From positions 1 through 32,000 of the forward strand of contig CAWGRP010000004.1 of assembly GCA_963825005.1 (NCBI GenBank): a stretch of DNA of 32,000 bases, written 5' to 3'. Source of the DNA: an uncultured delta proteobacterium (lineage in GTDB: Bacteria; Desulfobacterota; Syntrophorhabdia; Syntrophorhabdales; WCHB1-27). Of this stretch, positions 12,732-31,291 are shown one piece after another. Position numbers and translations under genes: made by a program. The notes below the pieces were generated by a model, which worked only from the letters and a program-made list of their open reading frames with translations, was not told the origin of the DNA and did no database searches. How positions within the stretch are numbered: position 1 is the stretch's first letter; each line of letters opens with the position of its first letter.

Positions 12732-12774
12732 AGACTCCTCTTCAGCTTTGGCACTGGTGTCGACCTTTCAAGAG

Positions 12775-13137: not shown

Positions 13138-13587
13138 CGGCTGCCTCCGCTCGATTGCTCGTCAATAAGCTCTTCGACCTTTCCCTTGATCTGATCCCGT
13201 ATCTTTCTTGTCTTCGCCAGCTTTTCTTCATGGGTTCCTGTAAGGCTAGCCGGATTCTCGAAAGGCCACTGAAGACGCGTCACGCGACCGGGGAAAATGG
13301 GGCATCGTTCAGCCGAGGATTCGTCACAAACCGTTATTACGTAGTCGTACAGCCTGCCCTCCTTGTAGAGGCTGAAAACAGACTTGGCCTGATTAGCAGA
13401 AATATCGATGCCCACCTCCTTCATGACCTCTATCGCAAGAGGGTTCGAGGGGTCCCGGTTCAAGGCCGGCGCTCTCCGCTTCAAAGAGGTCTCCGGCCAT
13501 CTTGTTCAAGAACGCCTCGGCCATCTGGCTTCTCGCGGTATTGTGGACGCACACGAACAACACCCGATATTTTTCCTCGCTACTCAT
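13134..13587 (-). pseudogene. arsC: Arsenate reductase, LMW-PTP / thioredoxin-coupled type, frameshifted
   Basis: ATG 13587 is preceded by GGAGG. The P-loop is [17 protein letters not shown] (Cx5R), and the downstream Cys pair is VCDESSAERCP. The N-terminus is in the frame of ORF 13393..14388 and the C-terminus in ORF 13134..13484. The switch is near 13446-13452 (AGLEPGPL / [12 protein letters not shown]). The span is 454 nt, which fits a 1-nt insertion. Confidence 0.85.
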
Positions 13588-15871: not shown

Positions 15872-16312
15872 TCAGCACTCTATAACCTGGCCGCCTAACT
15901 TCTTCCTGAGCTGACGGACGGGCTGCTCTTTGAGAAGCGGAAAAAGCCTTCTCTTTTCTTTGGGCAAGAAAATTACATCATACCCTTTCTTTGCCTCGGT
16001 CATCACGGTCGATACCACATCTTCCGTTTCTACCGGGCAGATTGCGAGGGAGACGCCGGTGTTGAGCGCCTTCTTGCGGAGTTCCTCTGCCTCTGCGCTC
16101 GCGCGAGCGAGCACCTGATCGCGAATGTAGAGTAGAAACTGCGCCTTACTGGGACGGGTTGCTACCAGGTCGTTGTGACCGTAGTGGTAAAGATCGGAAG
16201 TAAGGATCTGAAGCGCAACTATTTTTTTCGACGAAGCCCGGGCAAGGCGGAAAGCGGCCTCCACCGCGTCGTCACAGTCGGCGCCGGTCAAAACGAGGAG
16301 AATAGTATTCAT
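15872..16312 (-). CDS. Universal stress protein (UspA) family
   Basis: MNTILLVLTGADCDDAVEAAFRLA is a typical Usp N-terminus and ~146 aa a typical length. The track ORF begins at an alternative TTG (16327) that overlaps the stop of the upstream small ORF. Confidence 0.65.
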   Translation of the reverse strand: MNTILLVLTGADCDDAVEAAFRLARASSKKIVALQILTSDLYHYGHNDLVATRPSKAQFLLYIRDQVLARASAEAEELRKKALNTGVSLAICPVETEDVVSTVMTEAKKGYDVIFLPKEKRRLFPLLKEQPVRQLRKKLGGQVIEC

Positions 16313-16323
16313 AGGGCCGATCT

Positions 16324-16497
16324 TCAATATAACCCCATTACCTGCAAAAACCAGAGGACAAGCACGGCTCCGACACCCAGGACAATGGCGATGTACTCGT
16401 CCAGTCGGTGGCGCAACTGTTTTGCCGCTGACTCTGCTTCGACCTTCTTCAAATCGGCTACGTCCGGACTTTCTCTATTTTCCCTATTTTCAGCCAT
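16324..16497 (-). CDS. Small C-terminally anchored membrane protein (57 aa), not in the supplied ORF track
   Basis: I translated this by hand: MAENRENRESPDVADLKKVEAESAAKQLRHRLDEYIAIVLGVGAVLVLWFLQVMGLY. It has a charged N-terminal half and a single C-terminal TM helix. Its stop overlaps the TTG of the Usp ORF. It lies 40 nt downstream of the YeiH-family gene. Confidence 0.4.
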   Translation of the reverse strand: MAENRENRESPDVADLKKVEAESAAKQLRHRLDEYIAIVLGVGAVLVLWFLQVMGLY

Positions 16498-16537: not shown

Positions 16538-17704
16538 CTATTTAAATACACCGAATTTTATCAAGATCAGGATCAACCCCACGCATATGCCGACTCTCAG
16601 GCATCCCGCTACATAGCCGATCAGAATGCCCTTCGGTCCGGCCTTTCTCAGATCGCCCAGCTTGGTCTGTAGCCCCAGACCGACAAAACAAAGGGTAAAG
16701 AACCAGTTCATCACCTTTTCCATGGCCTCGTTCGCCGGCTGCGGCCACAGGTGAAGGCAATTGCCGATCCATACGATAAGAAAGCCGAATACGAAGAGGG
16801 GGAACTTGTCTTTGAGAATCTGCCACGTATCAATCTTTGATGAGCGAAATTCCTGCGTCAGGGTCATGAAATAGATGAAAAGAACCCCGGCGGGAATGAG
16901 AACAACCCTCCCTATGTTAGAAAAACCTGCCACCTTGCCCGCCTCGAAACTGTAGTTGAATCCTGTAGCAATCACCTGGTTGGAATTGGGAACCCCCGCT
17001 GCGCACAGGATGCCGAACGTATAGCTTGATAGCTGGAGGAGTCTGCCGAAAAAAGGAAGCATAAAAAGGCAAAAGAGGCCGAAGGTGACCGAGACTGCAA
17101 TCGCGTACGCCACCTCCTCACTCTTGGCCCGCACCATTGGCGCTACCGCAACACAGGCCGAAACGCCGCACATGGAAAAAGCGGCTGAAAGAAGAGCGGT
17201 AAGGCTGTCTCCGAGCTTGAAGTAGCGGCCCATGAAAATAAAGACGAGCGCGCCTCCAAAGACCATCACTATCATCAGCAGGATACTGACGGCGCCCAGT
17301 TTGACCACGTCGCTTAGCATGTATTGAGATCCCAGCATGATGATGCCCACGTTCATAAAGACACCGCTGTATGTCAGGCCCGATTCCCACGACCTGGGAA
17401 CACCGACCACGTTCCGGATAAGTATGCCTACGACAAGGCCGATGACCACGTAGTTGAAGTGGAGCAGATCGACAAAAAGCCCCTTGCCGTAAATTGGAGG
17501 CAGCACCGCGTCGATGTATGCCAGCAGGTTCTGGATAGTGAAAGGAAAGTCGACCCCTGGCAATCCGCAAAGAACGGCAATGATTATCATCGCGAGAAGC
17601 CCCGGCCAGCTCGCCTTAAAGCTCGGGAGCGAACTCCATATTGTCGGCTTTCGAACCAGAGCCGCTTCGCTCAAGGCTTTTTCATATGTCGCATCTTGTG
17701 CCAT
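16538..17704 (-). CDS. YeiH/UPF0324 family membrane protein (putative sulfate-exporter family transporter)
   Basis: The product is a 388-aa polytopic protein. SAAFSMCGVSACVAVAPMV matches the family's conserved sICGxSAi segment. AAGGAG precedes ATG 17704. Confidence 0.7.
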   Translation of the reverse strand: MAQDATYEKALSEAALVRKPTIWSSLPSFKASWPGLLAMIIIAVLCGLPGVDFPFTIQNLLAYIDAVLPPIYGKGLFVDLLHFNYVVIGLVVGILIRNVVGVPRSWESGLTYSGVFMNVGIIMLGSQYMLSDVVKLGAVSILLMIVMVFGGALVFIFMGRYFKLGDSLTALLSAAFSMCGVSACVAVAPMVRAKSEEVAYAIAVSVTFGLFCLFMLPFFGRLLQLSSYTFGILCAAGVPNSNQVIATGFNYSFEAGKVAGFSNIGRVVLIPAGVLFIYFMTLTQEFRSSKIDTWQILKDKFPLFVFGFLIVWIGNCLHLWPQPANEAMEKVMNWFFTLCFVGLGLQTKLGDLRKAGPKGILIGYVAGCLRVGICVGLILILIKFGVFK

Positions 17705-17918: not shown

Positions 17919-20789
17919 TCACTTCAACCGCCATACTTCCCTGTATGCCAGCCTCTTAAGCAGCGTCTTGCGCAGGAAGTGTTCGGTGGTGCCGTTGACG
18001 CCGACCATCACGTCAACATTGTTTCGCGGATACTCCGCAAGGTTGGGTGTCCGCTTGCCCGCCTTATCTTCTATGTGCCAGGCCTGGATACGCTCGCCGT
18101 CGAAGTCATCGATGACGATCTTGAAATATCCTTCCGGGCCGGTATAGGTTCTGTTCTTCGCATCGAGGATAATCGGTTCGGGATTGTCGAGAATAAACTC
18201 ATTCAGCATGTAGCAGTGGCCGCAAACATCGGGCCGCATCACGTAGCGCGGATCATCAGCCCACGGCTTATCACGCTCAAGTTTCTGCACACCCGTCCAC
18301 GCATAGAGCGTCACCGTACCGCCCGCGAAATCACACGGAAGGTCAAGCTCTACATGGACGTCCTTGTACTGCATCATCACCTTCTGCTGGGACGGGCTGT
18401 ATTGAGGCAGCGTGTCGTAAACTTTCTGGTCAACGGGACCCAGTTGCTTGTCGGCCACCGTCTTTCCTTCACCGTCGATCAGAAGGAGACGCGCCGTCTT
18501 CCGGCCCGCATCGACACTTGCGACCCTGAGCTTGTAGTCGCCGAGCGCAGTCTCTTGCCCGGCTTTCAGCTCTATCTTCTCCGGTTCTTCATACGAGATG
18601 GTAAACGAGTCCATACCCGGACTGCCCATCTCCGCTATCTCCACAACGTCGGGACTCACCCACCGGGGGATCACGTAAGTCGCCCCCTCGGCGTAGACGT
18701 CGGGCAAAGAGTACTTCTGGCTCGCAAACGACTTATCGCCGTAGATCGGCTCATACTCTGAAAGTCCCGGCCCCAGGAGAATGTCGGCCCCGAATGCATT
18801 GCCGGAGTACTTGATGATGCGCATGGTTGCAACAGGCCTTCCCCAGAGCCATCGCGAGCCAAGAAAGCGGACCGCCTTACTCCCATCCCCAAGGGGAATA
18901 TCCTGCCAGAACAGGGGATTCCCGTCCCCCATCGGGAGCAGCTTCCAATAATCAATAGCCGCATGCTTTCTGACGACGAGGTAACTTTCCGTGCTCAGCA
19001 GATACGCCCTTTTCCCGAGGATGTATAAGGATTCGCCTGCAAGAGGCCGGACGTTCCTGTCGAGGCGCGACGTGTAGTACAAGCCGGCGGGAGGTATGAT
19101 GATCTTTCCCTTGTGATAGTCAACGTAGCTGCCCCGTATGACGAGGGCCTCCGCGGAGGTCAGCTTTTCTCCCTTGCGGTTCTCCACGAATTTACGCACA
19201 AGACCTCTTAGCTTGGGAACGAACGCGCAGTCCGGGTCGGGCGCGAACCACTTGGCCGACGCGATCGCGGGTGGATACGAAGTGAACTTCGATTTGACCA
19301 CCGGCACCCCGTACGTGGGGTCCGCAAGCCGTGTCAGAAATGTATCCTCCATCACCGATACAACAAGCTCACTCATACCGATAAAGAAGTCTGCGTTCTC
19401 TCTCCCTTCTTTCCACAGGATAAGGTTGTCGGTGCGTCTGAAGAACGCATCCCGCACATATGAGTTCTTCACCACATCGCTTTCGATCTTTCCAGCCACT
19501 ACCTTGAAATAGGGCCTGTCCCAGAAATCGGAGATCTTGATCGGCCCTGCGTAAGTCTCTTTATCGTTGGTCAGCTCGAACGCATCCTTGTTTTCCAGCA
19601 CCACGCGCTTCAACATACCGGTCATGGAATCGGGCTCGAGCCGGACCAGGTATCGTTTGTCCCTCGGCCAGGGCTCTCCGTCCTTCAGCTTCACGAGGTT
19701 GTGATAAATCATGAAAGAGACGGTACCGTTTGTCCAGCCCAGCGGCACGTCGTTTGCCCATGGCGCAAAATCAGAACCCTTGTACCAGGAGGGATCGACC
19801 ACGAGCTCTATGTGCAAATCAAGGTCGAAATCGGTGAGCGACATTCGCTCCTGGTCAGTCACCTTGTACTCCTGCTGCGTCACCGGCACGAGAAGCTTGG
19901 ATGCCAGCACCTTTTGGCCTGTCCAGTTGCGTACCTCCACCAGAATCCCGTTCTCCTTACGGAATGCATAAATTCTCTTGCTCCACCACCAGCGGTAGCT
20001 CTCCTGCCGGACCCCAACCACATACGGCCTGTCCAGCGAGAAGACCGCCTCCTTGATAACCGGATACTTCACCTCCGAGAAGAGCGCATCCTCATGTGTC
20101 ATCTTTTTTGTGGTCAGTCTCGTCGCCCCGTACTGGTATGAACTGGTGAGAAAGAAAGGTTCCTGCTGAGGGTTGACGCCTTCTTTCAAGTTCAGGTCCC
20201 GTGCCTTTGCCGGCTCAGGAAAAGAAGAAGAGACCGGCATTTCAGTCTGCCACCCGCCCGAGGGCGCGATCACGGCAAGCTCTCCGTAGGGCTTCCCGTA
20301 ATGATCCGTCGCGTAGTCGAACCAGAGGCGATATCCTGAATCATCGAGGAGGACCTTTCCCCTCTTCTTGACCGCAACGTCCGTCTTCGTTACCTGGGCA
20401 GTTCTGAGCGACAACAAGTAAGAGGTCTCTCCGAGAATCAGGAAGGGATCCCTTCGCAGAGGCTTCGCGTCCTGTGACGTGGACGACGCGTAGAAGAGGC
20501 CGCCGGCCGGAACAGAGACCTTGCTGTCTTTCACCTGGCTACCCCTGAGCACCACGCACTCCGCAAGCTCCTTTTCCTGGCCGTAATGATTCCTATGGGT
20601 CGTGTTGAGGAGGCCTCCGAGTTTGGGGATGTACGTCGCATCGTCAGCCGGGGGAAGGCCGTGTGGAGACTCTGTGCCCCATGCGTTGCCTCCCGCAAGG
20701 AGACCAATGATGAGTACCGCGGGAATAAGCAGGAGCGGGAGTATCCCTCGGTCGTACCGTTTAAGCAAACAAGCGATAAGGCTCAGCAT
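17919..20789 (-). CDS. Exported 956-aa protein of unknown function, composed of two tandem ~470-aa repeats
   Basis: This is an uninterrupted 2.87-kb ORF. A GGAGGGAAGG RBS precedes the start, which overlaps the upstream stop (ATGCTGA). The N-terminal signal/anchor is RGILPLLLIPAVLIIGLLAGGNAWG. The internal repeat is visible by eye; see findings. Confidence 0.85.
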   Translation of the reverse strand: MLSLIACLLKRYDRGILPLLLIPAVLIIGLLAGGNAWGTESPHGLPPADDATYIPKLGGLLNTTHRNHYGQEKELAECVVLRGSQVKDSKVSVPAGGLFYASSTSQDAKPLRRDPFLILGETSYLLSLRTAQVTKTDVAVKKRGKVLLDDSGYRLWFDYATDHYGKPYGELAVIAPSGGWQTEMPVSSSFPEPAKARDLNLKEGVNPQQEPFFLTSSYQYGATRLTTKKMTHEDALFSEVKYPVIKEAVFSLDRPYVVGVRQESYRWWWSKRIYAFRKENGILVEVRNWTGQKVLASKLLVPVTQQEYKVTDQERMSLTDFDLDLHIELVVDPSWYKGSDFAPWANDVPLGWTNGTVSFMIYHNLVKLKDGEPWPRDKRYLVRLEPDSMTGMLKRVVLENKDAFELTNDKETYAGPIKISDFWDRPYFKVVAGKIESDVVKNSYVRDAFFRRTDNLILWKEGRENADFFIGMSELVVSVMEDTFLTRLADPTYGVPVVKSKFTSYPPAIASAKWFAPDPDCAFVPKLRGLVRKFVENRKGEKLTSAEALVIRGSYVDYHKGKIIIPPAGLYYTSRLDRNVRPLAGESLYILGKRAYLLSTESYLVVRKHAAIDYWKLLPMGDGNPLFWQDIPLGDGSKAVRFLGSRWLWGRPVATMRIIKYSGNAFGADILLGPGLSEYEPIYGDKSFASQKYSLPDVYAEGATYVIPRWVSPDVVEIAEMGSPGMDSFTISYEEPEKIELKAGQETALGDYKLRVASVDAGRKTARLLLIDGEGKTVADKQLGPVDQKVYDTLPQYSPSQQKVMMQYKDVHVELDLPCDFAGGTVTLYAWTGVQKLERDKPWADDPRYVMRPDVCGHCYMLNEFILDNPEPIILDAKNRTYTGPEGYFKIVIDDFDGERIQAWHIEDKAGKRTPNLAEYPRNNVDVMVGVNGTTEHFLRKTLLKRLAYREVWRLK

Positions 20790-21103
20790 GTACAGTCCTT
20801 CCCTCCAATGCCTTCCAAAATAAAGAACGGCTTGATTTTCTTGAGCAGCGTCCGGTCCATGCCCGGCACCTGCAGCAACTCCTCGACCGTCTGAAAATCG
20901 CCGTTGTCTTTGCGGTACTTTACAATATTCTTTGCGAGTTCCGGTGTCATCAGGGGCACATTCTTCGTCAGATCGTCGGCGCTTGCCTTGTTGATGTTGA
21001 CAGTCTTTCCTTTAAGTTTCTCCTCCGCCGCCCAGGCGCTGATCGAAAGCACGAGAAAAAGACCGGCCAGCACCAAAACGAAAGCTACTCTCTTCTTTGT
21101 CAT
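20783..21103 (-). CDS. Exported ComEA-like helix-hairpin-helix protein (copy c)
   Basis: Signal peptide MTKKRVAFVLVLAGLFLVLSISAWA, then VNINKASADDL...LAKNIVKYRKDNGDFQTVEELLQVPGMDRTLLKKI, which follows the ComEA/HHH_3 consensus. The C-terminus is GGKDCTC. Start ATG 21103 has the better spacing to AAGGAGG; the track start is 21112. Confidence 0.8.
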   Translation of the reverse strand: MTKKRVAFVLVLAGLFLVLSISAWAAEEKLKGKTVNINKASADDLTKNVPLMTPELAKNIVKYRKDNGDFQTVEELLQVPGMDRTLLKKIKPFFILEGIGGKDCTC

Positions 21104-21118
21104 GACAGCCATCCTCCT

Positions 21119-22040
21119 TTACCACGTCCTCTGCAGTAGTACATATGCCGCGTTGTTTACATGCGCTTGGCCCGCGAATATCAGGACCAGCCGCAAGAGA
21201 AAGCCGCCCACCAGTAGCGCATAGAGGGCGACTGAAAATCGCATTCGATTTATAGCTCCTTTTCTCAAGACAAGAGCCATCAGGAACCAGCATGCCTAAA
21301 CCGAGGACGCCCGCCCACCATACCACGCCGTTCCCGCCTGTCACGAGATGGAGAAGGTCGCCACGCGATGGGCTGAAAAATGAAAACAATAGAAAGAGCA
21401 AGGTGAAGAGCAGATGAACAGGCAGCAATATCCGATAGCCCGATCGGAGCCAGAGCATAGGCTGCTCCATTGCCTCGGCAGGAGCAGCGCGGAGCGCTAT
21501 CACGCCGCCTGCCGCGAACCCCGTTGTCATCGCCGAGAAGCAGAAGAGGCCGGGTAGGGCCACATTTCTCCAAAGCGGAAGCGCCGAGGCGGAAAGGAGG
21601 ACGCCGGTATAGACGGATACCGCCAGGGCGACCGGCATCCCCGCAACTCCCAGTGCGCTGCGATAACTCTTCTTTCGCCATACGCTCCACCCCCCGATCA
21701 TTGGCAGACGAGCTTTCTGCGGTTCGGGGAGCCAGAAGAGTGCGTGTACAATGGAGATGGCGCCAAACAGGCTGAGGAGCCAAACGCCGAATGACATGGG
21801 AGAATCGGCGTTGAAGACGCGTAACGTGAACCAGAAGCGTGTCTTGTACATCAAGTCGAGAATGAGCATGGCGAGGCCGAAGGCGACTGAAAGCGGCGCA
21901 AGAAAGGCCGCGCTTCGAGAGCATACCTCGAATCCCTGCCCCTTCTTCCTGCTCGCCAGGACAGCGAGACAGAAGCTGCCGGCCCCCAGGCCCGCGAAGA
22001 AGAGGTCGAGCGCTACAGGAAGACCCCATGTCTCAACCAT
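21119..22040 (-). pseudogene. NrfD/PsrC-type integral membrane quinol-interacting subunit, frameshifted near its 3' end
   Basis: MVETWGLPVALDLFFAGLGAGSF is the NrfD-family N-terminus, and several TM helices follow. The start overlaps the psrB-like stop by 8 nt. The frame changes near 21281; the alternative frame gives LMALVLRKGAINRMRFSVALYALLVGGFLLRLVLIFAGQ...QRTW and stops at 21119. Confidence 0.8.
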
Positions 22041-22692
22041 CTGTTCCCTCCTCGGGGCCAAGCCTCTTCCAGAGCCATGCGAGCACGAGTGCTCCTGGAA
22101 TGAGACCGCCAAGCCACTTCCACGGCTGAAACGCGCGTACCGTATTGAGTGGCACGGGCTCAGGCAGTTGATAATCTCCGGGCGCGCCCTGAAGAGCATA
22201 GATCATATGGAGCCGTTCCTTTCTGCCGTAGGCAGGCGCATCCGGCCCTTTCCCATCGGGGTAGTAGGTGAGAGCATCGGTAGGGCACTTTGCGACACAG
22301 GCCGGCTCCTTACCCACGTCGATGCGCTGAATGCAGAAGCTGCACTTTCTCATTGTATGCTGGCTCGGGCTTTTTTTTGGAACCTGAAACGGGCAGGACT
22401 CTATGCAGTACCCGCAGCCGATGCATTTCGTTCTCAGGTGCTCCACGACGCTGTCATCCCTGCGGCGCAGGGCTCCGGCCGGGCATGCCGACACGCAGGA
22501 CGGGTCGTTGCAGTGAAAACAGGCGGTGGATGCAGACCATTCCTGCGCCTCGGGAAGATGGCCCGTCACGTGGCTCTTCACCCAGCGGAGTTGAATGCCG
22601 GGAGGGGCATCGTTTTCCAGTTGGCAGCCCACCTCGCAGGAGTGGCACCGGATGCACTTCTTTCCATCAAATAAAATCAGCCGCTCAGTCAT
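22033..22692 (-). CDS. 4Fe-4S ferredoxin-type subunit, PsrB/HybA-like, with a C-terminal hydrophobic helix
   Basis: Cys clusters are CIRCHSCEVGC, CFHCNDPSCVSACP, CIGCGYCIESCP and CSFCIQR...CVAKCP. The C-terminus WKWLGGLIPGALVLAWLWKRL looks like a TM anchor. Confidence 0.9.
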   Translation of the reverse strand: MTERLILFDGKKCIRCHSCEVGCQLENDAPPGIQLRWVKSHVTGHLPEAQEWSASTACFHCNDPSCVSACPAGALRRRDDSVVEHLRTKCIGCGYCIESCPFQVPKKSPSQHTMRKCSFCIQRIDVGKEPACVAKCPTDALTYYPDGKGPDAPAYGRKERLHMIYALQGAPGDYQLPEPVPLNTVRAFQPWKWLGGLIPGALVLAWLWKRLGPEEGTDG

Positions 22693-22764: not shown

Positions 22765-24918
22765 TCACGCTTTCACCAGCCTGCAACCGAATCCGTTGAA
22801 CTGGGCTGATACCTTGTCCCAGTTGGAAGGGATGATCGTGTTGATTGAAGTGCCCGCGTTTCCCGCAAAAGGGCTCGCCTTGGCCGGATGAGAAGGTGTC
22901 CAGACGAGTCCAGGCAGAATCATCTCACTCAGGGCAATCCTGACTTTGATCTTTCCCAATTCGGTTTCAAGATGGGCCCACTCGCCATCCTTCAGGCCCA
23001 GGCTTTTGACGGTATCAGGATGCACCTGCACGTAATTTCCTTTTGAAAACTGCGCCATGTATGCCGACCAGTTGGTGTAGGTGTGCTGCCAGTGCTGCAC
23101 CACTTTGCCCTGGAGGAAGATGAGAGGAAACGGCTTCGACTCTCCCGCATCCCCAAGCGGGCTCCCTTCCGGCTCCGACCACGCAATGGGTCCCAGCGCC
23201 GGGGAGCGAAGCTCCACTTTTCCATCTTCCGTGAGAAAGCGGTCATTCGGATAAAGCGTACCGTGCGTGCCAGGATGAGCCTCCGATGGACAGGGCCAGC
23301 TGATCCCGGTCGGCTCTTTCTTCAAACGCTCCAGTGTCAACCCGGACCAGGTCGGGGAGTGTTTCCTCACCATTTCAAAAATATCTTCTGGACTCTTCAG
23401 ATCCGGAAATTTTTCTCCGTTGATCTTTTTGCCGAGGTCAGCGTAAAAGCGCCAGTCTTCTGTCGTCTCTCCCGGGATGGGCACAGCCTGGTTGCGCCAG
23501 ACAATCTGTCGCTGCGCCCCGTACTGGGAACCTGAACTCTCGAACGGCATGGTGCCGGGGATAATGAGATGAGCGAGAGACGCCTCGTCGTCCATGAAGA
23601 AACCCCGGTAAACAACGAGGTCCACATTGCCGATCGCCTTTCGTACCCGGTTGGCATCGGGATAACGGCGGTAGCTGGAGTTCAAAAGCAGCACGTTCAC
23701 CCGTTTCTGTTCCATGGCAAAGAGAACTTTACGGAAACTGAGCGCGGCCGGCATGTCCTGGGCCCGGAAAGAATCCTCGAACGCTTCGATGCCTCCCGGT
23801 TTGCCGCCCTGGACATTCATGATCCCCTTTCCGGGACCGCTCAGATTGGCCGTCAGCGCCTGCAGGGCAATGATCGCACGCGCGCTCTGGATCGAATTGG
23901 TGTAGCGCGATATGGAGCCGCCGAGCCAAACCATCGTCTTCTTACTTGCGGCCAGGCGTGTGGCCAGTTCCACCACCTTCTCGGCCGGTATCCACGTGAT
24001 CTTCGCCACCATCTCCGGCGTGTAAAGCTCGGTTGCTTCAGCGAGTTCCTTGAACCCATTCACGTGTTGGGCAACGTAATTACGGTCATGCATGTTCTCT
24101 CTTATCATGAAGCGGATCAGTCCGAGCGCGAGAGCGCCATCGGTGCCCGGCCGCCCCATGAGCTGCTCGTCGCAGTGATTGCTGGTCGGTGTCCTGCGCG
24201 GATCCAGATAGATCACACGGACACCCTTGGCCCGGGCCTGATCGATCCAGCGTATGTAAGGCGGATACATCTCAGCAATATTTGCCCCGAACAGGACAAG
24301 CACTTCCGTATTCATCGCTTCGTCAAGCGTGGTTGTGGAAACAGGACTGCCGAGGCAGATGCGCAAGGCCGTCGCCGAACTCCCTATGCAGGTGTCTCCC
24401 GGCGAGCATATATCAGGGAACCCTGCTGCCCACAGTGCCATCTCCGCGGCGATCTCGCTCTCGTGTGATTCCCAGAGAGGCGCAAAGAGCGTTACCCGGT
24501 GCGCGTAGTCATCGGGGAATTCTTCCTTCACCTTTATGACCCGCTCTGCCACGGTATTGAGCGCTTCTGCGTAGGAGATACGCTTCCAGTTTGTCCCCTC
24601 GCGTTTCAGTGGATAAAGGATCCGGTGAGGACTGTAGGTGAGCTCCACCAGCGCCTGTCCCTTGGGGCACATCGTCCCGTCGGTCCAGGTATTGCCCGGG
24701 TTGCCATACGCGTTGACGACCCGGTCATTCCTGACCTGCACAAGCGTGGTACATCGCACCTGACAGAACTGGCAGCAGCTCATCACCTCGCGGTCGATCT
24801 GCGCCGGCGGCTCTGCGGCTGCCCCCGTCGTTATGCCGGGCGCGCTGAGAGCACCGGCTGCCAGTGCGCCGGCCTTCAGGAAATTCCGGCGGGTGATGCT
24901 CATCTGCCGTTTTTTCAT
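22765..24918 (-). CDS. Tat-exported molybdopterin oxidoreductase catalytic subunit, polysulfide/thiosulfate reductase (PsrA/PhsA)-like
   Basis: The Tat signal is MSITRRNFLKAGALAAGALSA. The FeS motif is CCQFCQVRCTTLV...MCPKG. The candidate Mo-ligand Cys context is PGDTCIGSS. The ORF is an intact 717 aa and is followed by FeS and NrfD-type genes. Confidence 0.9.
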   Translation of the reverse strand: MKKRQMSITRRNFLKAGALAAGALSAPGITTGAAAEPPAQIDREVMSCCQFCQVRCTTLVQVRNDRVVNAYGNPGNTWTDGTMCPKGQALVELTYSPHRILYPLKREGTNWKRISYAEALNTVAERVIKVKEEFPDDYAHRVTLFAPLWESHESEIAAEMALWAAGFPDICSPGDTCIGSSATALRICLGSPVSTTTLDEAMNTEVLVLFGANIAEMYPPYIRWIDQARAKGVRVIYLDPRRTPTSNHCDEQLMGRPGTDGALALGLIRFMIRENMHDRNYVAQHVNGFKELAEATELYTPEMVAKITWIPAEKVVELATRLAASKKTMVWLGGSISRYTNSIQSARAIIALQALTANLSGPGKGIMNVQGGKPGGIEAFEDSFRAQDMPAALSFRKVLFAMEQKRVNVLLLNSSYRRYPDANRVRKAIGNVDLVVYRGFFMDDEASLAHLIIPGTMPFESSGSQYGAQRQIVWRNQAVPIPGETTEDWRFYADLGKKINGEKFPDLKSPEDIFEMVRKHSPTWSGLTLERLKKEPTGISWPCPSEAHPGTHGTLYPNDRFLTEDGKVELRSPALGPIAWSEPEGSPLGDAGESKPFPLIFLQGKVVQHWQHTYTNWSAYMAQFSKGNYVQVHPDTVKSLGLKDGEWAHLETELGKIKVRIALSEMILPGLVWTPSHPAKASPFAGNAGTSINTIIPSNWDKVSAQFNGFGCRLVKA

Positions 24919-24952: not shown

Positions 24953-27061
24953 CTATGCCTTCTTCGCGTGCGGAGAATCGGGCTCAAAAAGTTCATACAT
25001 GATGCGGCCTTCAAAATTGGGCGGCGGCACCAGGCCGTACATATGCATAATGGTGGGCATCACGTTCATCATGTGGCCACCCTTCGAAACATCGTTGTTC
25101 TTTTTTATGCCGGGACCAACCGCTATGAACGAGGTAAGCGCGTTGCCATGGTACCCGGTAAAATGTCTGCGCGGATTGTCCCATATCTGTCCGTCACGGC
25201 CGAAAGCGCCAAAATTAATCTGGTAAAGTCCGTCATTCTTCTTGCCCGGCACCTTGATTCCCGATGCATCACGAAAGCCGCAGAACTGCACGTCACCGGC
25301 ATACCAGCCGTAATCGCCCTTGTATATATTCTCAACCCGGTCTGCAATCTGTGTGTACTGCTGTCCTTCAGGGTCTTTGAGCTTCTTCAATTCGGCGATG
25401 ATTAAGTCGCGCAGCTTTTCATACTCGTTGTACTCCACGATGCCGTTCGGTTCGCGCCCCTTGAGGTTGATGAATATGCCCGGGTTCCAGGAAGTGTATG
25501 CCTTGGTCCTTGACCAGTCGATGTCATCGTTATCATACGTCCGCTTCTTGCCCTCCACCTCAGGCTTGACGTTGAGGAGCCCCAGTTTCATCAGCCATGA
25601 ATTGGGCTCGAAGTCCTTCTTCGTCGGTCCCCATGCGTGATCGGATATCATCATGAAGCACGTATCTTTGGGTAGTTCTTTCAGTATCCTTGCCAGCTCC
25701 TTGTCAACGTATTGTGTGAATTCCAGCATCAGCTTGCCGTTGCCGTATTTCTCTTCGTACTCCTCCGACCAGTCGGGATTGCCTTCAATGCGGGTCATGT
25801 TGTGGTTGAGGCGGTCATACGGCATATTGGAGAACCAGAAGAAGTCCCACGGCTTATTCTTCATCAGCCAAAGCACAATGTTATTCTGTTCGCGAGTTGC
25901 ATCGTAGCAGTCCTCGATTAGCGTCTCCTCTTCCTGGACGTAAGCGATAAACGCCGTATAATCGTATTCGAAAGGTACGTTCGGTGTCCGATAGTAGCCC
26001 ACCGCATCATATACCTCCTTCTGGAGTGAGGGCGGGTAGGTCCACCGATCGGTCGGCACGACAGGCCCGTCGAAGAACTGGTCAATCGGCTCGTGCCGTT
26101 CCGGCGCCGTGGGGTCTTGCAGAAGACGGTAACGATACAACTGCAGGGCGCCATCATCCGTATTAATCAGCTCCGGCTTCCAGCGGACGATAGCCCGCCT
26201 CCCATTCGGAAATTCAATGGGGACATACTTTGACCACTCACCCTCTTTCAGGGTCAGCTTGAGATCGCTGTATGCGATGGTTACCGTGTTGCCGGGATTG
26301 AGCGTTAGTTCAAGGGGAACTTGCTGGTCCTTACGGCGGATCGCGGTGGACACCTTACCACCCGAGAAAGTCACCTTGGTTTTCAAGGGGCCTGCGGCTC
26401 TGTGTTTCTCCTGGGTGTAATAGACGTGACCCATGTTGAATGGCTGATCGCCCAACCCTGGCGCGCCCTTGCCGGACAGCATGAAGCCATCCTTCAGCCG
26501 TTCCGGTGGCCAGGACATTGCCGTGCCGCAGAGGCCGACTTTCACGCCTCCCTCAGCCAGCATGAAAGGCACAGTTGGGGCGTGCAACCTGAAGAACCGG
26601 TTGATGCCCGAAGTCTGGAAGGCAGTCCGGTCATAGATCTGCCACGGATGCGATCCGAAGAAATTATTCTGGCCCGGACCTACTCCTGTATTGTAGGCAG
26701 CCCATGCGTCGACAGACATGCCGCGGAAAATATTTTCGAACTCCCCGTAACTGCCTTGCGTCAAGAGCTTCTTGAACGTGGGGAGTTTGCCCTGTTTAGA
26801 CCATTCAATTATTTTTTCCATGCTGCATGAGTCAAGGCCCATCAGCAGAATTTTCGGCTTCTTACCGGCCTTCGATCCCTTGCCCGTTCTCTCCTTGGCC
26901 GGGGCAGCACTCGACGCCTTTGCCGCGAGTCCGGCCACTGCGGTTCCCAGAATGCCGCCGGCCAGTTTTTTTAACGCACTGCGCCGGGACAGACCTTTAT
27001 TTTCGTCTATCGTGCTGTCATCCGCGCTATCATCGATGTTGTCATTGATGGTATCATCCAT
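24953..27061 (-). CDS. Tat-exported AlkP-superfamily phosphohydrolase/phosphomutase-like protein (COG3379-like)
   Basis: An acidic N-terminus is followed by the Tat motif LSRRSALKKLAGGILGTAVAGLAA. KILLMGLDSCSMEKIIEWSKQGKLPTFKKLLTQGSYG and MMISDHAWGP follow the COG3379 / type I phosphodiesterase pattern. The RBS is AAGGAGG. Confidence 0.75.
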   Translation of the reverse strand: MDDTINDNIDDSADDSTIDENKGLSRRSALKKLAGGILGTAVAGLAAKASSAAPAKERTGKGSKAGKKPKILLMGLDSCSMEKIIEWSKQGKLPTFKKLLTQGSYGEFENIFRGMSVDAWAAYNTGVGPGQNNFFGSHPWQIYDRTAFQTSGINRFFRLHAPTVPFMLAEGGVKVGLCGTAMSWPPERLKDGFMLSGKGAPGLGDQPFNMGHVYYTQEKHRAAGPLKTKVTFSGGKVSTAIRRKDQQVPLELTLNPGNTVTIAYSDLKLTLKEGEWSKYVPIEFPNGRRAIVRWKPELINTDDGALQLYRYRLLQDPTAPERHEPIDQFFDGPVVPTDRWTYPPSLQKEVYDAVGYYRTPNVPFEYDYTAFIAYVQEEETLIEDCYDATREQNNIVLWLMKNKPWDFFWFSNMPYDRLNHNMTRIEGNPDWSEEYEEKYGNGKLMLEFTQYVDKELARILKELPKDTCFMMISDHAWGPTKKDFEPNSWLMKLGLLNVKPEVEGKKRTYDNDDIDWSRTKAYTSWNPGIFINLKGREPNGIVEYNEYEKLRDLIIAELKKLKDPEGQQYTQIADRVENIYKGDYGWYAGDVQFCGFRDASGIKVPGKKNDGLYQINFGAFGRDGQIWDNPRRHFTGYHGNALTSFIAVGPGIKKNNDVSKGGHMMNVMPTIMHMYGLVPPPNFEGRIMYELFEPDSPHAKKA

Positions 27062-27141: not shown

Positions 27142-27504
27142 CTAGCACTTGGACGGTTTGAGACTCGGCTCATCATCGTCGTCCCCATCACTCTTGGCTG
27201 GGGGCAGAAGTATGTCTCCCTTTGAATCAACCTGCAGCGACATCTTCTTGAGAATCTCCTGCGTCATGCCAGGCACCTTCAAGAGGTCATCAGTTTTTTT
27301 GAAGGCGCCGTTCTTGGTGCGGTAATCGACGATCGCCTTGGCGAGGACCGCCGTGACTCCGGGAACCTTGGCGAGCCGAGTCGCACTCGCTTTGTTCAGG
27401 CTCGTCTTTCCTCCTGCTTGAGCTTCCGCCGTAGCGGTATATCCCATCAGGAACAGGGCCGCCACCAGGATAAGTGCCAACAGACGATATGTTCTCGTAG
27501 GCAT
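27142..27504 (-). CDS. Exported ComEA-like helix-hairpin-helix protein (copy b)
   Basis: Signal peptide MPTRTYRLLALILVAALFLMGYTATAEA, then SLNKASATRLAKVPGVTAVLAKAIVDYRTKNGAFKKTDDLLKVPGMTQEILKKM. The acidic tail is DGDDDDEPSLKPSKC. The RBS is AAGGAGGAG. Confidence 0.8.
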   Translation of the reverse strand: MPTRTYRLLALILVAALFLMGYTATAEAQAGGKTSLNKASATRLAKVPGVTAVLAKAIVDYRTKNGAFKKTDDLLKVPGMTQEILKKMSLQVDSKGDILLPPAKSDGDDDDEPSLKPSKC

Positions 27505-27615: not shown

Positions 27616-27945
27616 TTAGTACCTTGGCAGCTTGGCCTCATCATCGTCGCCGCCGCTTTTCGCAGGCCCGAAAGCCAGGGCCGGCGCCACTGCATCGACC
27701 TTCTCCTTCGTCATGCCGGGTACCTTCATCAGGTCATCAGCAGACTTGAATGAACCCGATTTCGTGCGTGTCTCAACCATAGCCTTTGCCATGTCGCCGG
27801 AGATTCCCGGGACCTTTCCCAGTTGGTCCGCAGTCGCTGCGTTTACGTTCACCTTCGCCGGTCCTTGCGCGCACACGGCTGCTGCCAGGATAAAAGCAAA
27901 ACCCAGGCAAACAACAAACCCTGCAACTAATGTCTTCTTAATCAT
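27616..27945 (-). CDS. Exported ComEA-like helix-hairpin-helix protein (copy a)
   Basis: Signal peptide MIKKTLVAGFVVCLGFAFILAAAVCA, then VNVNAATADQLGKVPGISGDMAKAMVETRTKSGSFKSADDLMKVPGMTKEKVDAV. The acidic tail is GGDDDEAKLPRY. The RBS is AAAGGAGGA. Confidence 0.8.
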   Translation of the reverse strand: MIKKTLVAGFVVCLGFAFILAAAVCAQGPAKVNVNAATADQLGKVPGISGDMAKAMVETRTKSGSFKSADDLMKVPGMTKEKVDAVAPALAFGPAKSGGDDDEAKLPRY

Positions 27946-28134: not shown

Positions 28135-29496
28135 TTACTTCGCCATTTTCCAGATGGCCGGGCAGTCACCGCTCAAGGGTTCTGCCTTGCTCAGGTCTTT
28201 GCCGGCCAGCCCCGGATAATCCTTTCCATACTTGTAAGACCGATGAATCATGTTGGCGGCAAGATCCTCCCTCGCCGATACGCTGTGTTTCGCGTCGTCA
28301 TAGAAGCAGTTAATCTTGTCCCCTGGAAAAACAGGGTTAACCCATTCCCAGACCACTTGCGGCTTCGGGTCATGCGTAACCTCGAAGACGTGACCATGAT
28401 TGCTCGATGTCACCAGGATATTGCCGTTGGGAAGCTTCTGCGCCGACCCCTGGTACGTAGTATAGAAACTGTTTCCGATGACCGGCTCAAACTGCCAGAC
28501 AATCTTACCCGTCTTCGGATCCATCTCTACAACGCGGGAACGGTTTTTTTCCGGCCGTTTCCAGCCGTTGTCAAATATCTGAAAATTGCCGTTTTCAAGC
28601 CGCGTTACATGGTGAGGACCGAAGAGAATCTGATCTCCGTCGTCCACGAAGCCGGGTTTTTTGCCTTTGCCGTAGGTAGTCGGATTGCCCCAGCGATACT
28701 CGATCGCGCCCGTCTTGTGATTGATAAGGAAGAATTCGCCGAAATTTCGGGAATTGACGAGGATCTGATCGGTCGCAGGGATATAGTCGAGCGTGTTGAA
28801 ATGCGTCCAGTCAGGCACGTGCATATATCCGCTTGCTTTGGGCAGCTGGTAGTTGACGTTCAGTTTCTTCGGCCCCTTTCCTATGTGGTCCCAGGCATGC
28901 CACTCCCATACTACCTTCTTGTCCCTGTTGACCTCCTTCACGTAATCCGGCCAGAGGCCCGTATATTTCATTCCTTCGAATTCGAATTCCTTAGGCATGG
29001 TCTTCGGGTTACGCCCTTTCTTGATCGCTTCGGCAGCGCTCTTGTATTCCCAGCCCAGCACAAGAATATTCCCGTTCGGCATGATGTTGAAGCAGTGGTG
29101 CTGAACCATGGTCGGGGTATACTCCTTGTATTCCCAGACAACGTTTCCATCCCAATCGATTTCCTGAATTAGACCGGCGGTGCCACCGAACTTGACAGGC
29201 GCCTTGTCGGGGTCCGGCCTTCCGGCCCGCAGAAGATTCCCATTCGGCAGGAGCATCGCGAAAAGCCCCGGCATATACGGGCTCTTCCATGTATGGACGA
29301 CGTTTCCCTCCATATCGATGAGATAGGTGGTCGTGCTCAAACTGGGAGCAAACAACATGTAACCATCGTATGCCTTTTCCTTGTTGTATCTGATTAGTCC
29401 GGTTGGCCCGTAGAGCAGCTCATAGGCCCCTGCTGAAATTACTGAAACCGCGATAAACGTCATAACGGCTAACGCACACAAACATTTTTTGGACAT
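28135..29496 (-). CDS. Exported arylsulfotransferase (ASST)-like beta-propeller protein
   Basis: Internal start ATG 29496 is preceded by GAGGGGGAAGG. The signal peptide is MSKKCLCALAVMTFIAVSVISAGA. Blade-like motifs repeat: LPNGNLL, MPNGNILV, LENGNFQIFDNG and LPNGNILVTSS, each followed by VVWEY, VVWEWHAWDH, IVWQFE or VVWEW. This pattern is typical of proteins annotated as aryl-sulfate sulfotransferase family. Confidence 0.6.
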   Translation of the reverse strand: MSKKCLCALAVMTFIAVSVISAGAYELLYGPTGLIRYNKEKAYDGYMLFAPSLSTTTYLIDMEGNVVHTWKSPYMPGLFAMLLPNGNLLRAGRPDPDKAPVKFGGTAGLIQEIDWDGNVVWEYKEYTPTMVQHHCFNIMPNGNILVLGWEYKSAAEAIKKGRNPKTMPKEFEFEGMKYTGLWPDYVKEVNRDKKVVWEWHAWDHIGKGPKKLNVNYQLPKASGYMHVPDWTHFNTLDYIPATDQILVNSRNFGEFFLINHKTGAIEYRWGNPTTYGKGKKPGFVDDGDQILFGPHHVTRLENGNFQIFDNGWKRPEKNRSRVVEMDPKTGKIVWQFEPVIGNSFYTTYQGSAQKLPNGNILVTSSNHGHVFEVTHDPKPQVVWEWVNPVFPGDKINCFYDDAKHSVSAREDLAANMIHRSYKYGKDYPGLAGKDLSKAEPLSGDCPAIWKMAK

Positions 29497-29722
29497 GCCT
29501 TCCCCCTCGTAAGAAGTTTTTATATTGAAGTGCCACACGGCCCTTCCACCAACTCTTTTCCCACCCCCTCTCAGCGTATAACTTGTTGCGCTAAACCAAG
29601 AAGCCCTATGCACGCAGCGTGCGTCTCTGTGAAGCGCGTTACAGTCTTCTCGACCGTCTGATACGTAGTAATCAAGCCGTAGGAAAATTATTACAGACGA
29701 TCGGAGAGATCCTGCTGATTAC

Positions 29723-29929: not shown

Positions 29930-31291
29930 CTACATCTCCAGGCCGTACTGCGCCATCTTATCGTAAAAGGCGCGGCGGCTGATGCCGAGGAGGCGTGCGG
30001 CCATACTGCGGTTATTATCCGCAGCCTTCAGGGCTTTGACGATTGCTTTCTTCTCCGCCTCTTCAACCACCTGCCTCAAAGGCAGTGGCGTTCCATCCAC
30101 CCCACCGCTGGTCTCTTTCGCGGGACCTCGTTCAATGCTGAGGCAGTCGAGCGTGAGCGCCTCATCTTCGGCAAGAAGAACCGCTCGCTCCAGGATGTTG
30201 GCCAGTTCCCTGATGTTTCCCTTCCAGGGCCAGCTGTACATCGCCTCCAGCACGTTAGGTTTGATCGTGCTGATCTTCTTCTTGTATGCCTTGCAGAACT
30301 TGTTTAAGAAATGATCGATGAGGAGAGGAATGTCTTCCAGTCGCTCTCTCAAAGGAGGCAGGTGGAGAGGAACCACGGCCAGGCGATAGTACAGGTCATC
30401 ACGAAACATTTCCTCTTCTATCATTGGACGTAGATCACGGTTCGTCGCTGATATGAAACGCACGTCAATCTGGATTGTCTGATTTCCTCCAACGGGTTTT
30501 ATCTCTCTTTCCTGGATTGCCCGGAGCAGTTTCACCTGGGTGGAAAGTTTGATATTGGAGATCTCATCCAGGAATACAGTTCCCCCCTGGGCCTCCTCAA
30601 GCAGGCCTCTTTTGGCCCTTATGGCCCCGGTGAATGCGCCTTTGACATGACCGAAGAGCTCGCTCTCCAAAAGTGTTTCCGTCAACGCGCCGCAGTCGAT
30701 CGGCACAAAGGGATGGTCCTCCCGGGAGCTGTTCGCGTGAATCATCCGGGCCAGCAGCTCTTTGCCTGTTCCGCTTTCCCCTTCGATCAACACGGAGGCT
30801 TGCGAGTCGGATATCTTTTCAACCTTTCGCAGGAGTTCGTGCATCGCCCTGCTTGACCCAACGACCATCTTTGGGAACTCTCCGTTCTCTTCCTGAATGC
30901 GCAACGTATCCAGCTTCCGATGCAATTTTCCATATTCGAGTGCCCTGCGGAACAGGATCTCCGCCTCCTGCATCTTGAACGGTTTGGTGATATAGTGAAA
31001 AGCGCCGAGCTTTATAGCCTGCACTGCCGTCTCGATGGTTCCCACGCCGGTGATGATGATAAAAGGCAAGGTGGAATCGGAAGCTCTGACCCGTTCGAGA
31101 AGCTCGAGGCCGCTGAGGTCATCCATGGCCATGTCTGACAGGACAAGGTCAAACATGGTTTCTTCGATCGCCTTCCAGCCTTCCTCGCCGGACCCGGCAG
31201 TTGTCACGTCATAGCCAAGCCGGTTCAAGAATCGGGCAAGAACCTGCCTCATCTCCGGCTCATCTTCCACGATGAGAATTTTCTCAGCCAT
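29930..31291 (-). CDS. Sigma-54-dependent response regulator (NtrC family: REC + AAA+ + Fis-type HTH)
   Basis: REC domain: ILIVEDEPEMRQVL...DLVLSDMAMDD. Walker A: GESGTGKE. GAFTGA is present (GHVKGAFTGA). C-terminal HTH: NRSMAARLLGISRRAFYDKM. Confidence 0.95.
   Translation of the reverse strand: MAEKILIVEDEPEMRQVLARFLNRLGYDVTTAGSGEEGWKAIEETMFDLVLSDMAMDDLSGLELLERVRASDSTLPFIIITGVGTIETAVQAIKLGAFHYITKPFKMQEAEILFRRALEYGKLHRKLDTLRIQEENGEFPKMVVGSSRAMHELLRKVEKISDSQASVLIEGESGTGKELLARMIHANSSREDHPFVPIDCGALTETLLESELFGHVKGAFTGAIRAKRGLLEEAQGGTVFLDEISNIKLSTQVKLLRAIQEREIKPVGGNQTIQIDVRFISATNRDLRPMIEEEMFRDDLYYRLAVVPLHLPPLRERLEDIPLLIDHFLNKFCKAYKKKISTIKPNVLEAMYSWPWKGNIRELANILERAVLLAEDEALTLDCLSIERGPAKETSGGVDGTPLPLRQVVEEAEKKAIVKALKAADNNRSMAARLLGISRRAFYDKMAQYGLEM

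Follow-up and report, generated by a model that had tools for sequence, protein, structure and literature searches.

What is the function of a large protein that is predicted to be exported, has no named domain and is encoded between a molybdoenzyme and a membrane transporter? This question is raised by a 956-aa protein, hereafter big956, encoded on the minus strand of contig CAWGRP010000004.1 of an uncultured delta proteobacterium (assembly GCA_963825005.1, Syntrophorhabdales). We analysed positions 1 to 32,000 of this contig, and this stretch of 32,000 nucleotides is called the window (Table 1). Next to big956 there are genes for a YeiH-family transporter, a molybdoenzyme, small secreted helix-hairpin-helix (HHH) proteins and a homologue of the aryl sulfotransferases (ASST). 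We tentatively regard big956 as a periplasmic thiol-based core, catalytic or docking, for the processing of sulfur oxyanions, a reading to which we give a probability of roughly 0.4. It is based on an invariant C-x-x-C motif, whose first cysteine is very probably a selenocysteine in related proteins, and on the conserved gene neighbourhood.

Architecture and invariant motif of big956

A BLASTP comparison of residues 1-480 with residues 481-956 gave a single collinear alignment (47-473 with 517-932, 25% identity, E 7e-31). The profile-profile comparison of residues 40-505 with residues 506-956 (hhalign, 76 homologues) reached a probability of 100% and an E-value of 4.9e-41 over 412 aligned columns. 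An all-beta module of about 450 aa is present twice in tandem in big956, as the result of an ancient duplication. The module is also found alone in other proteins and is therefore a true evolutionary unit, and as all full-length members of the family have both modules, the duplication predates the family. The initial annotation, made by eye, had proposed this tandem architecture and named a self-alignment as the check; the repeat is significant, and the three residue pairings listed there (53-128 with 523-600, 367-387 with 836-856 and YAGPIK... with YTGPEGYF...) are in register in both alignments. A conserved terminal helix closes module 1 (..MEDTFLTRLADP) as well as module 2 (..TEHFLRKTLLKRLAYRE, residues 931-956). 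The latter is basic and amphipathic, i.e. big956 ends in an amphipathic helix and not in a transmembrane (TM) segment.

The N-termini of big956 and of 25 sampled homologues exhibit, by inspection, a hydrophobic core after a basic n-region as well as an AxA-like site, followed by a conserved start of the mature protein (..EENPRGLPP). These features agree with the earlier description of the protein as exported and point to a cleavable signal peptide of the Sec type. Mature big956 has a mass of about 104 kDa and an isoelectric point of about 7.2, and is most likely a soluble periplasmic protein, as judged from its sequence.

In module 2 we detected the motif C856-G-H-C859, which is invariant in all 76 aligned sequences. 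This motif had been missed before, when no catalytic motif was recognised in the protein. Module 1 has no cysteine at the position equivalent to C856 (..LEPDSMTGML..). In big956 itself both positions are TGC codons, i.e. this protein uses cysteine. An exhaustive search with a hidden Markov model (HMM) yielded 171 relatives, many of them with a single module and 375-560 aa in length. Among the truncated cluster representatives, 22 of 24 end in ..PDT or ..PET (RPDT/RPET), one residue before the position of C856, and at least 16 small open reading frames (ORFs) begin just past the equivalent position. The DNA of the truncated relatives shows that the frame reads on through a TGA codon (..ARPDT-TGA-STCS..), and the frame after the TGA is homologous to residues 866-939 of big956 (E 2e-21). 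In the metagenome loci with this motif the codon was TGA in 39 of 39 cases and never TAA or TAG, and each time it was followed by x-x-C. With selenocysteine written as U, at least eight distinct sequences carry motifs of this type, reading U-S-T-C, U-A-T-C, U-A-S-C or U-N-S-C. In a gapless alignment between the anchors RPD and L-x-N..P-I-x-L-D the U corresponds to C856 and the next cysteine to C859.

The TGA-bearing single-module relatives are very probably selenoproteins. Since C856 corresponds to an in-frame TGA in these relatives, it is probably a catalytic or redox-active residue of an active site, its chemistry being deduced from this exchange. Gene callers split the genes concerned into a protein of about 380 aa ending in ..PDT and an ORF of about 90-150 aa. 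In the loci compared, numbered with the prefix L, in-frame TGA sites are located at L081:2072-2074, L082:1286-1288, L093:6291, L094:9177, L095:9120, L098:9141, L125:7758, L130:9090 and L136:1704.

A candidate hairpin of the selenocysteine insertion sequence (SECIS) type lies about 16 nt past the UGA. With the structure specified manually from one sequence, 69.6% of the alignment cells were paired compared to 33-46% when the pairing partner was slid, and the covariation was 0.31 compared to 0.11-0.16, a value reached in 0 of 500 shuffles. RNAalifold did not predict a consensus structure, and minimum free energy folds of 60 nt were not significant. The evidence for this hairpin is only suggestive. 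The U-x-x-C relatives appear to be an uncatalogued selenoprotein subfamily: a word search for S-layer and DUF1608 gave no matching entry in a 2026 review of prokaryotic selenoprotein families, and none of the NCBIfam models matches the big956 modules or the cysteine-type relatives.

Two simple cofactor assignments for the motif were rejected. A haem-binding site is ruled out by the order of the residues (CGHCY, not CXXCH), and an Fe-S cluster by the predicted Sec export rather than export by the twin-arginine translocation (TAT) pathway. It is conceivable that the Cys or selenocysteine, the His and the Glu of the C-terminal beta-sandwich form a mononuclear site for a metal or metalloid (Cu, As, Se), which accepts electrons from the molybdoenzyme or a cytochrome or hands a metalloid to it. 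The residues C-(P)-x-G-H and a downstream W-H-x-E/D are conserved superfamily-wide, either Met or Gln follows the motif (CGHCYM/CGHCYQ), and selenocysteine can serve as a metal ligand. The CxC termini of HHH proteins resemble metallochaperone motifs. Furthermore, ArsM-like and Acr3 arsenic genes are present 2-5 kb away in this window, and relatives of the module occur in the selenate respirer Selenihalanaerobacter and beside SelA-like genes. However, the selenocysteine-type members read U-S/A-T/S-C without a His in the motif, which corresponds to the redox signature UxxC in its classical form; sulfidic periplasms are unlikely to contain free Cu, and a metal site would leave the ASST genes and the sulfite-related YeiH in the neighbourhood unexplained. 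We consider a metal or metalloid site unlikely, although we place it before the other alternatives discussed below.

Fold, conservation and the S-layer question

The AlphaFold2 model of full-length big956 (mean predicted local distance difference test score, pLDDT, 84.5; predicted TM-score, pTM, 0.80) is all-beta, and a separate model of module 2 (pLDDT 78.2, pTM 0.76) is an all-beta sandwich. In Foldseek searches of the PDB, both models had the same top and sole significant match, 3U2G, with a probability of 1.00 and E-values of 2.1e-6 for the full-length model and 3.2e-7 for module 2. The second-ranked match of module 2 had an E-value of 1.8e-3 and a probability of 0.12. 3U2G is the C-terminal DUF1608 domain of the S-layer protein MA0829 of Methanosarcina acetivorans. 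The global TM-scores between the big956 models and 3U2G are poor (0.13-0.32, at 11-12% sequence identity), and the similarity is therefore a local one at the level of the 3Di structural alphabet, with differing packing of subdomains and differing insertions. A thioredoxin fold was not among the listed Foldseek matches of either model.

A likeness to the tandem S-layer duplication domain of methanogens had already been suspected in the initial annotation. At the level of family profiles this was not confirmed: full-length big956 is matched neither by PF07752 nor by TIGR01567 in Pfam and NCBIfam (E <= 0.01), and the two modules scanned separately against NCBIfam gave no match at E <= 1. A remote relation is nevertheless indicated by the match to 3U2G and by a bridge via a single-module relative, P0156. 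This protein is matched by the HMM of module 2 with an E-value of 7e-43, and its residues 203-403 align with positions 68-257 of the 259 positions of PF07752 with 18.1 bits, below the cut-off of 30 bits; its close homologues P0327 and P0345 have precomputed PF07752 matches. The corresponding part of module 2 comprises residues ~693-893 (model positions 68-257), and the segment that had been singled out by eye (about residues 752-783) falls within this region. These results suggest that the bacterial big956 module is remotely related in its fold to the S-layer domain DUF1608 of archaea, outside the family as delimited by its threshold. big956 itself is most likely not an S-layer protein.

The description of big956 as an orphan holds only for its annotation: searches of Pfam and NCBIfam (E <= 0.01) and of PDB sequences gave zero matches, and profile searches of PDB sequences with the big956 family and with the single-module relatives revealed nothing relevant. 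Homologues, by contrast, are numerous. We found at least 245 in a search of a protein collection, the best 120 of which share 56-87% identity; all of them are unnamed or annotated as hypothetical, and none has a Pfam or NCBIfam domain. A further search with a mixed alignment of both modules was saturated by the two-module family and added none. With one genome per species, 77 distinct loci related to big956 were obtained (43-88% identity). They are distributed over at least four phyla, mainly Desulfobacterota, a lineage of sulfate reducers, and in addition Acidobacteriota, Methylomirabilota and Tectomicrobia, and nearly all hosts belong to diderm lineages. The Desulfobacterota members include Syntrophales/Syntrophorhabdales, Desulfatiglans, strain NaphS2, Desulfosarcina variabilis, Pseudodesulfovibrio, Desulfomicrobium as well as Mailhella and Desulfovibrio from the gut, and the closest locus (85% identity) is that of a Syntrophorhabdales metagenome-assembled genome from peat. 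One contig (L022) is labelled as Anaerovoracaceae (Firmicutes). Its gene order is that of the Desulfatiglandales loci L024 and L002, with gene coordinates differing by mere tens of bases, and the label probably reflects mis-binning or mislabelling and not an occurrence in Firmicutes.

For big956 the median identity over the 77 loci is 57%, equal to that of the molybdoenzyme subunit, and for YeiH it is 46%. The C-terminal helix (86% mean identity) and the linker between the modules (83%) are the best-conserved stretches of big956, and many polar residues are invariant in the alignment. As far as the alignment can tell, this is the conservation pattern of an enzyme or a tightly interacting subunit and not of a fast-evolving wall protein.

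These data bear on the proposal of the initial annotation that big956 is a surface or periplasmic scaffold. Such a protein would form a scaffold or lattice comparable to an S-layer, with two DUF1608-like domains and no chemistry of its own. This would fit 3U2G as the sole significant PDB fold match of both models, and the signal peptide followed by two tandem modules, a layout as in MA0829. The single-module relatives of Paracoccus versutus, [Pseudomonas] carboxydohydrogena, Xanthobacter and other proteobacteria resemble archaeal S-layer proteins: a signal peptide precedes a single module with C-P-x-G-H, and an Ala/Pro-rich tether leads to a TM anchor at the C-terminus; in big956 the conserved linker and C-terminal helix could be assembly interfaces. 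The proposal has nevertheless become weaker. A conservation of 43-88% across phyla, on par with a molybdoenzyme catalytic subunit, is not in favour of it, nor are the many invariant polar residues and the C-x-x-C that corresponds to U-x-x-C in relatives. In addition, big956 has no membrane anchor, its diderm hosts argue for a periplasmic rather than a surface location, and the gene belongs to an operon regulated by a sigma-54 or GntR regulator, in which it is paired obligately with yeiH and translationally coupled to a small carrier-like protein. A purely structural role therefore seems improbable to us, and we place it third, after the metal site and the partner of the transporter described below.

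Gene neighbourhood and candidate pathways

The proteins of the window were compared with all loci by tblastn, and the content of the clusters was counted in the 42 loci with at least 8 kb of flanking sequence on both sides. Directly downstream of big956 and on the same strand, a gene for YeiH was present in 69 of the 69 loci that reach far enough, and by synteny the two genes are the invariant core of a regulated gene cluster. Secreted HHH_3 proteins are encoded in all 42 loci counted and ASST homologues, one to five per locus, in 40. A molybdenum bis(pyranopterin guanine dinucleotide) (Mo-bisPGD)/FeS(/NrfD) enzyme, or a small multihaem cytochrome c together with a DUF1573 protein, was found in 35 of 42 loci, and a sigma-54 response regulator or GntR regulator in 34 of 42.

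In the window the genes are arranged on the minus strand in the order histidine kinase, sigma-54 response regulator, ASST, two HHH proteins, 702-aa protein, Mo subunit, FeS subunit, NrfD, third HHH protein, big956, YeiH, 57-aa protein and Usp-like protein (Table 1). big956 had been placed at the end of the cluster, which is not the case, as YeiH and two small proteins are encoded beyond it on the same strand. The ATG of big956 and the stop codon of the third HHH gene overlap (acATGcTGA), with a GGAGG upstream, and the two genes are predicted to be translationally coupled.

Table 1. Location of big956, its parts and the surrounding genes in the window, and of the hairpin found in its relatives
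Feature	Position	Strand	Basis or remark
big956, 956-aa two-module protein, predicted to be exported	17919..20789	-	ATG start; stop codon 17919-17921
big956 residues 1-38, putative Sec-type signal peptide	20676..20789	-	putative cleavage after ..NAWG; by inspection
big956 module 1, residues ~40-505	19275..20672	-	BLASTP, profile-profile comparison, family alignment
big956 module 2, residues 506-956	17922..19274	-	BLASTP, profile-profile comparison, separate model
Invariant motif C856-G-H-C859 (tgc ggc cac tgc)	18213..18224	-	76/76 aligned sequences
Candidate SECIS hairpin (relatives)	alignment columns 23-73, e.g. L082:1302-1352		compensatory changes
151-aa Usp-like protein, downstream of YeiH	15872-16327	-	
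57-aa conserved protein, downstream of YeiH	16324-16497	-	
YeiH-family (PF03601) transporter	16538..17704	-	Pfam, 181.5 bits vs cut-off 24.5
Secreted HHH_3 protein ending ..EGIGGKDCTC, Cys-x-Cys-COOH class	20783..21112	-	Pfam
NrfD/PsrC-type membrane subunit, start and C-terminal end uncertain	21012..22199	-	Pfam NrfD, E 1.6e-31
4Fe-4S electron-transfer subunit	22033..22692	-	Pfam/NCBIfam
TAT-exported Mo/W-bisPGD catalytic subunit, Fdh/Nap/Psr-Phs branch	22765..24918	-	Pfam/NCBIfam
702-aa protein, TAT-type signal ..SRRSALKKLAGG..	24953..27061	-	faint similarity to sulfatase/alkaline-phosphatase superfamily (metalloenzyme)
Secreted HHH_3 protein, acidic tail, ends ..DDDDEPSLKPSKC, PSKC-COOH class	27142..27504	-	
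Secreted HHH_3 protein, acidic tail, ends ..DDDEAKLPRY, C-terminal Tyr class	27616..27945	-	
ASST homologue	28135..29613	-	PF05935 98 bits, PF14269; start probably MSKKCLC.. Met near 29497
Sigma-54-dependent response regulator	29930..31291	-	Pfam
Histidine kinase fragment	31284-31994	-	

The HHH proteins differ in their C-termini. About 120 of 130 ORFs end in CxC-COOH (..EGIGGxxCTC, ..CNC) or, after an acidic tail, in (A/S)PSKC-COOH, and a minor class ends in Tyr (..LPRY, ..MNAY). Genes of the CxC class accompany the redox genes and are placed between NrfD and big956, between those for the Mo and FeS subunits, or ahead of cytochrome c, while those of the PSKC and Tyr classes come after ASST genes; the window has one gene of each class. 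The HHH proteins look like swinging-arm carriers, an analogy drawn from these termini, and a C-terminal Tyr could plausibly be the phenolic acceptor of an aryl sulfotransferase. A 768-aa ORF after an HHH gene in locus L066 is a spurious antisense frame of low complexity without any Cys.

The Mo subunit best matches generic Fdh/Nap/Phs members, from which its substrate cannot be assigned; an ArrA-type enzyme was ruled out (41 bits). At its 3' end the NrfD ORF shares about 100 nt with the HHH gene, and at its 5' end about 165 nt with the FeS gene. The Pfam match spans only residues 57-306 of 395, so that its true start and end are uncertain. The 702-aa protein is present in nine related loci (67-88% identical), always encoded upstream of the Mo subunit, either directly or with one ASST gene in between. 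The phosphodiesterase-like ORF at 31-2130 does not encode a paralogue of it.

How could these components work together? If big956 is a thiol-based core for sulfur-oxyanion processing, module 2 would carry the working site C856-x-x-C859, and module 1, a degenerate copy that lost the site, would probably only dock partners. big956 would take a sulfur-oxyanion group at the sulfuryl or sulfite level from the carriers, or pass it to them, redox turnover would proceed via the molybdoenzyme or cytochrome, and YeiH would exchange sulfite or a related anion with the cytoplasm. The sulfur-oxyanion substrate, the redox or nucleophilic chemistry of C856 and the physical coupling to YeiH and the carriers are what we infer from motif and gene context. 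Candidate directions are the reduction of sulfate esters to sulfite, the capture or oxidation of exported sulfite, and the handling of persulfide or selenium.

In one version, the cluster would encode an ATP-independent, carrier-based periplasmic pathway from sulfate esters to sulfite, an "aryl-sulfate respiration" bypassing sulfate activation. ASST homologues would transfer the sulfuryl group from aryl sulfates to the HHH proteins, where a C-terminal arm with Tyr or Cys would accept it. C856-x-x-C859 would then form an S-sulfocysteine and resolve it with release of sulfite, a chemistry similar to that of reductases of 3'-phosphoadenosine 5'-phosphosulfate (PAPS) but placed on a DUF1608-like fold, with selenocysteine in relatives. 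The disulfide would be re-reduced via the CxC carrier and a Psr/Phs-like molybdoenzyme or cytochrome c, and YeiH would hand the sulfite to the cytoplasmic dissimilatory sulfite reductase. As a whole this pathway is speculative, and we regard it as improbable to the same degree as the scaffold. If true, it would concern Desulfobacterota and Acidobacteriota of peat, groundwater and gut.

Resistance of Salmonella to sulfite stress is determined mainly by YeiH (PMC12880088), and a homologue from Bordetella pertussis is a proposed sulfite exporter (bioRxiv 10.64898/2026.04.22.720190). For the PAPS-independent aryl sulfotransferases of bacteria, both the role in physiology and the substrates used in nature are poorly understood (PMC13426309).

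Several observations weigh against a thiol-based core for sulfur oxyanions. Export is the function in which characterised YeiH proteins have been implicated, whereas one of the schemes proposed here would need import. The redox module is absent within 8 kb in 7 of 42 loci. The similarity of the ASST homologues to characterised enzymes is remote (best PDB match E 3.6e-5), and sulfuryl transfer itself is therefore a presumption. Many cysteine-type relatives have C-P-x-G-H with a conserved W-H-x-E/D replacing the second Cys, and the selenocysteine/cysteine pair can instead ligate a metal, as in formate dehydrogenase or [NiFeSe] hydrogenase. Finally, we found no description of the big956 family or of the gene cluster in the literature.

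The invariant neighbour YeiH also suggests another function, in which big956 is not catalytic but acts as a substrate-binding or gating lid delivering an anion or aryl conjugate to the transporter. In favour of this, the two genes are neighbours in 69 of 69 loci; a ligand could be clamped between the two homologous lobes, and the C-terminal amphipathic helix, which is conserved and basic, could rest on the membrane or on YeiH. But single-module relatives occur without YeiH, selenocysteine at the conserved Cys position favours chemistry over binding, and we know of no CPA/AT-clan transporter that uses a binding protein. This possibility is likewise unlikely and comes second after the metal site.

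The frequent ASST genes, on the other hand, could point to a periplasmic thiol-disulfide oxidoreductase or isomerase dedicated to the maturation of ASST paralogues or of HHH proteins. There is a precedent, as the ASST of uropathogenic E. coli CFT073 needs a dedicated DsbL/DsbI pair whose genes share an operon with assT (reviewed in PMC13426309). CGHC is the motif of protein disulfide-isomerase, and ASST is encoded in 40 of 42 loci. The module is, however, also found in clusters free of ASST (gut Mo/FeS/cytochrome b/HHH loci; TusA/DsrE loci), the invariant pairing with YeiH would remain unexplained, and a two-module beta protein of 104 kDa, whose model is not a thioredoxin fold, would be odd as a Dsb protein. 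We rate this as the least probable of the alternatives. In the window, a VKOR-family gene (4293-4790, minus strand), related to DsbB-like periplasmic disulfide-forming quinone reductases, is located 13 kb from the cluster.

The single-module relatives provide further context for the sulfur-oxyanion reading. In human-gut loci of the selenocysteine type the order is response regulator, histidine kinase, Mo, FeS, cytochrome b, HHH, module and UGSC-family protein. The Mo subunit is 44% identical to that of the window and the HHH protein ends in ..EGAECSC, so the order Mo enzyme, membrane subunit, HHH(CxC) and module is common to both. The UGSC-family (PF24696) protein directly downstream of the module, e.g. 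L098:9542-10264, is present in its Cys form (..GDCRAC..). In the proteobacterial clusters (L087:6861-13554, L089:7263-14297, L155:6690-10891, L084) TusA, DsrE and a small membrane protein whose TM helix contains a CxxC are encoded to one side of the module, and MetE-like (+TusA), SelA-like and flavoprotein genes lie to the other; P0296 is a fusion of this membrane CxxC protein with the module. In Selenihalanaerobacter shriftii a 12-haem cytochrome follows the module, and locus L094 has only sensor and regulator genes in its flanks; several further single-module relatives lie on contigs too short to show informative neighbours. What recurs next to the relatives are proteins for the trafficking of sulfur (or selenium) and modules for electron transfer in the periplasm.

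Scans of the window for promoters and terminators gave counts no higher than in shuffled controls. The sequence TGGCATGGGGTTCGCA (29724-29739, minus strand), intergenic between the sigma-54 activator gene and the downstream ASST gene, has the GG-N10-GC spacing of a sigma-54 promoter; such matches occur window-wide at the chance count. Arsenic-type genes lie at 11649-14388 (minus strand), 1.5-4 kb past the last cluster gene, including an Acr3/SBF-family carrier (11649-12731) and an ArsM-like S-adenosylmethionine-dependent methyltransferase (13393-14388), the ORF of which has part of a low-molecular-weight phosphatase/ArsC-like domain at its end. A CDF cation-efflux gene is located at 15006-15842 on the plus strand. 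A second molybdopterin oxidoreductase (7284-10086, minus strand) is split into ORFs in different frames (8665-10086, Molybdopterin; 7284-8663, Molydop_binding), which could be due to a frameshift, a pseudogene or a sequencing error. Similarly, a pyridine nucleotide-disulfide oxidoreductase at 5648-7121 (minus strand) is represented by two overlapping ORFs in different frames (6165-7121 and 5648-6394).

The family is of interest as a large unnamed group in at least four phyla which links ASSTs, YeiH, molybdoenzymes or cytochromes and carrier-like proteins. It would extend the DUF1608 "S-layer" fold to bacteria and to a non-structural, thiol-active role, and it bears on the use of organic sulfate esters and the handling of sulfite by anaerobes in peat, groundwater and the human gut, YeiH having been tied to sulfite only recently. 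Testable targets are C856/C859 and, in the HHH proteins, the Cys or Tyr at the C-terminus, and cultivable hosts are available with Desulfosarcina variabilis, strain NaphS2, Pseudodesulfovibrio karagichevae and Mailhella massiliensis.

Comparison with known systems

The N-terminal domain of DsbD is a periplasmic immunoglobulin-like beta domain with a redox-active Cys pair, which passes reducing equivalents between partners. The big956 model resembles it insofar as a predicted beta-sandwich would be redox-active. No homology is detectable, however, motif and spacing differ, and the cluster is without a membrane core of the DsbD type. The invariant C-x-x-C and the interchange of Cys and selenocysteine in homologues also place big956 near the CxxC/UxxC redox proteins in general, but its modelled fold is not thioredoxin-like. 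With UxxC selenoprotein families such as UGSC (PF24696), relatives of the module share U-x-x-C at the conserved Cys, whereas the fold differs and big956 itself has Cys (TGC).

In SoxY (..GGCGG) and DsrC a Cys on a flexible C-terminal arm is served by a dedicated enzyme set, and in polysulfide delivery Sud hands Cys-bound sulfur to the Psr-type molybdoenzyme PsrABC. The HHH proteins likewise have Cys at or near the C-terminus (..GGxxCTC, ..PSKC). Their fold is a different one (HHH_3, PF12836, ComEA/PsbU-like), and the cluster has no Sox, Dsr or rhodanese domains. CysH, the assimilatory reductase of PAPS or adenosine 5'-phosphosulfate, uses a Cys to attack activated sulfate, and a second thiol releases sulfite from the resulting S-sulfocysteine. 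The likeness to big956 is a chemical analogy only, as CysH is cytoplasmic, has an unrelated fold and uses a nucleotide-activated substrate and electrons from thioredoxin.

The closest structural counterpart appears to be DUF1608 of MA0829. MA0829 and, by prediction, big956 have all-beta multi-sandwich domains and an N-terminal signal, both have two tandem copies per chain, and the single-module relatives provide a transitive sequence bridge between them. The big956 modules are about 170 residues longer each, and unlike MA0829 the protein is bacterial, predicted to be periplasmic and without a C-terminal TM anchor or an archaeal host. It is highly conserved, carries a C-x-x-C/U-x-x-C site and is encoded in a regulated redox/transporter operon instead of a gene for a major wall protein. 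big956, encoded in a cluster that appears to be undescribed, appears to represent a DUF1608-like fold in a new bacterial, redox-active and transporter-coupled role.

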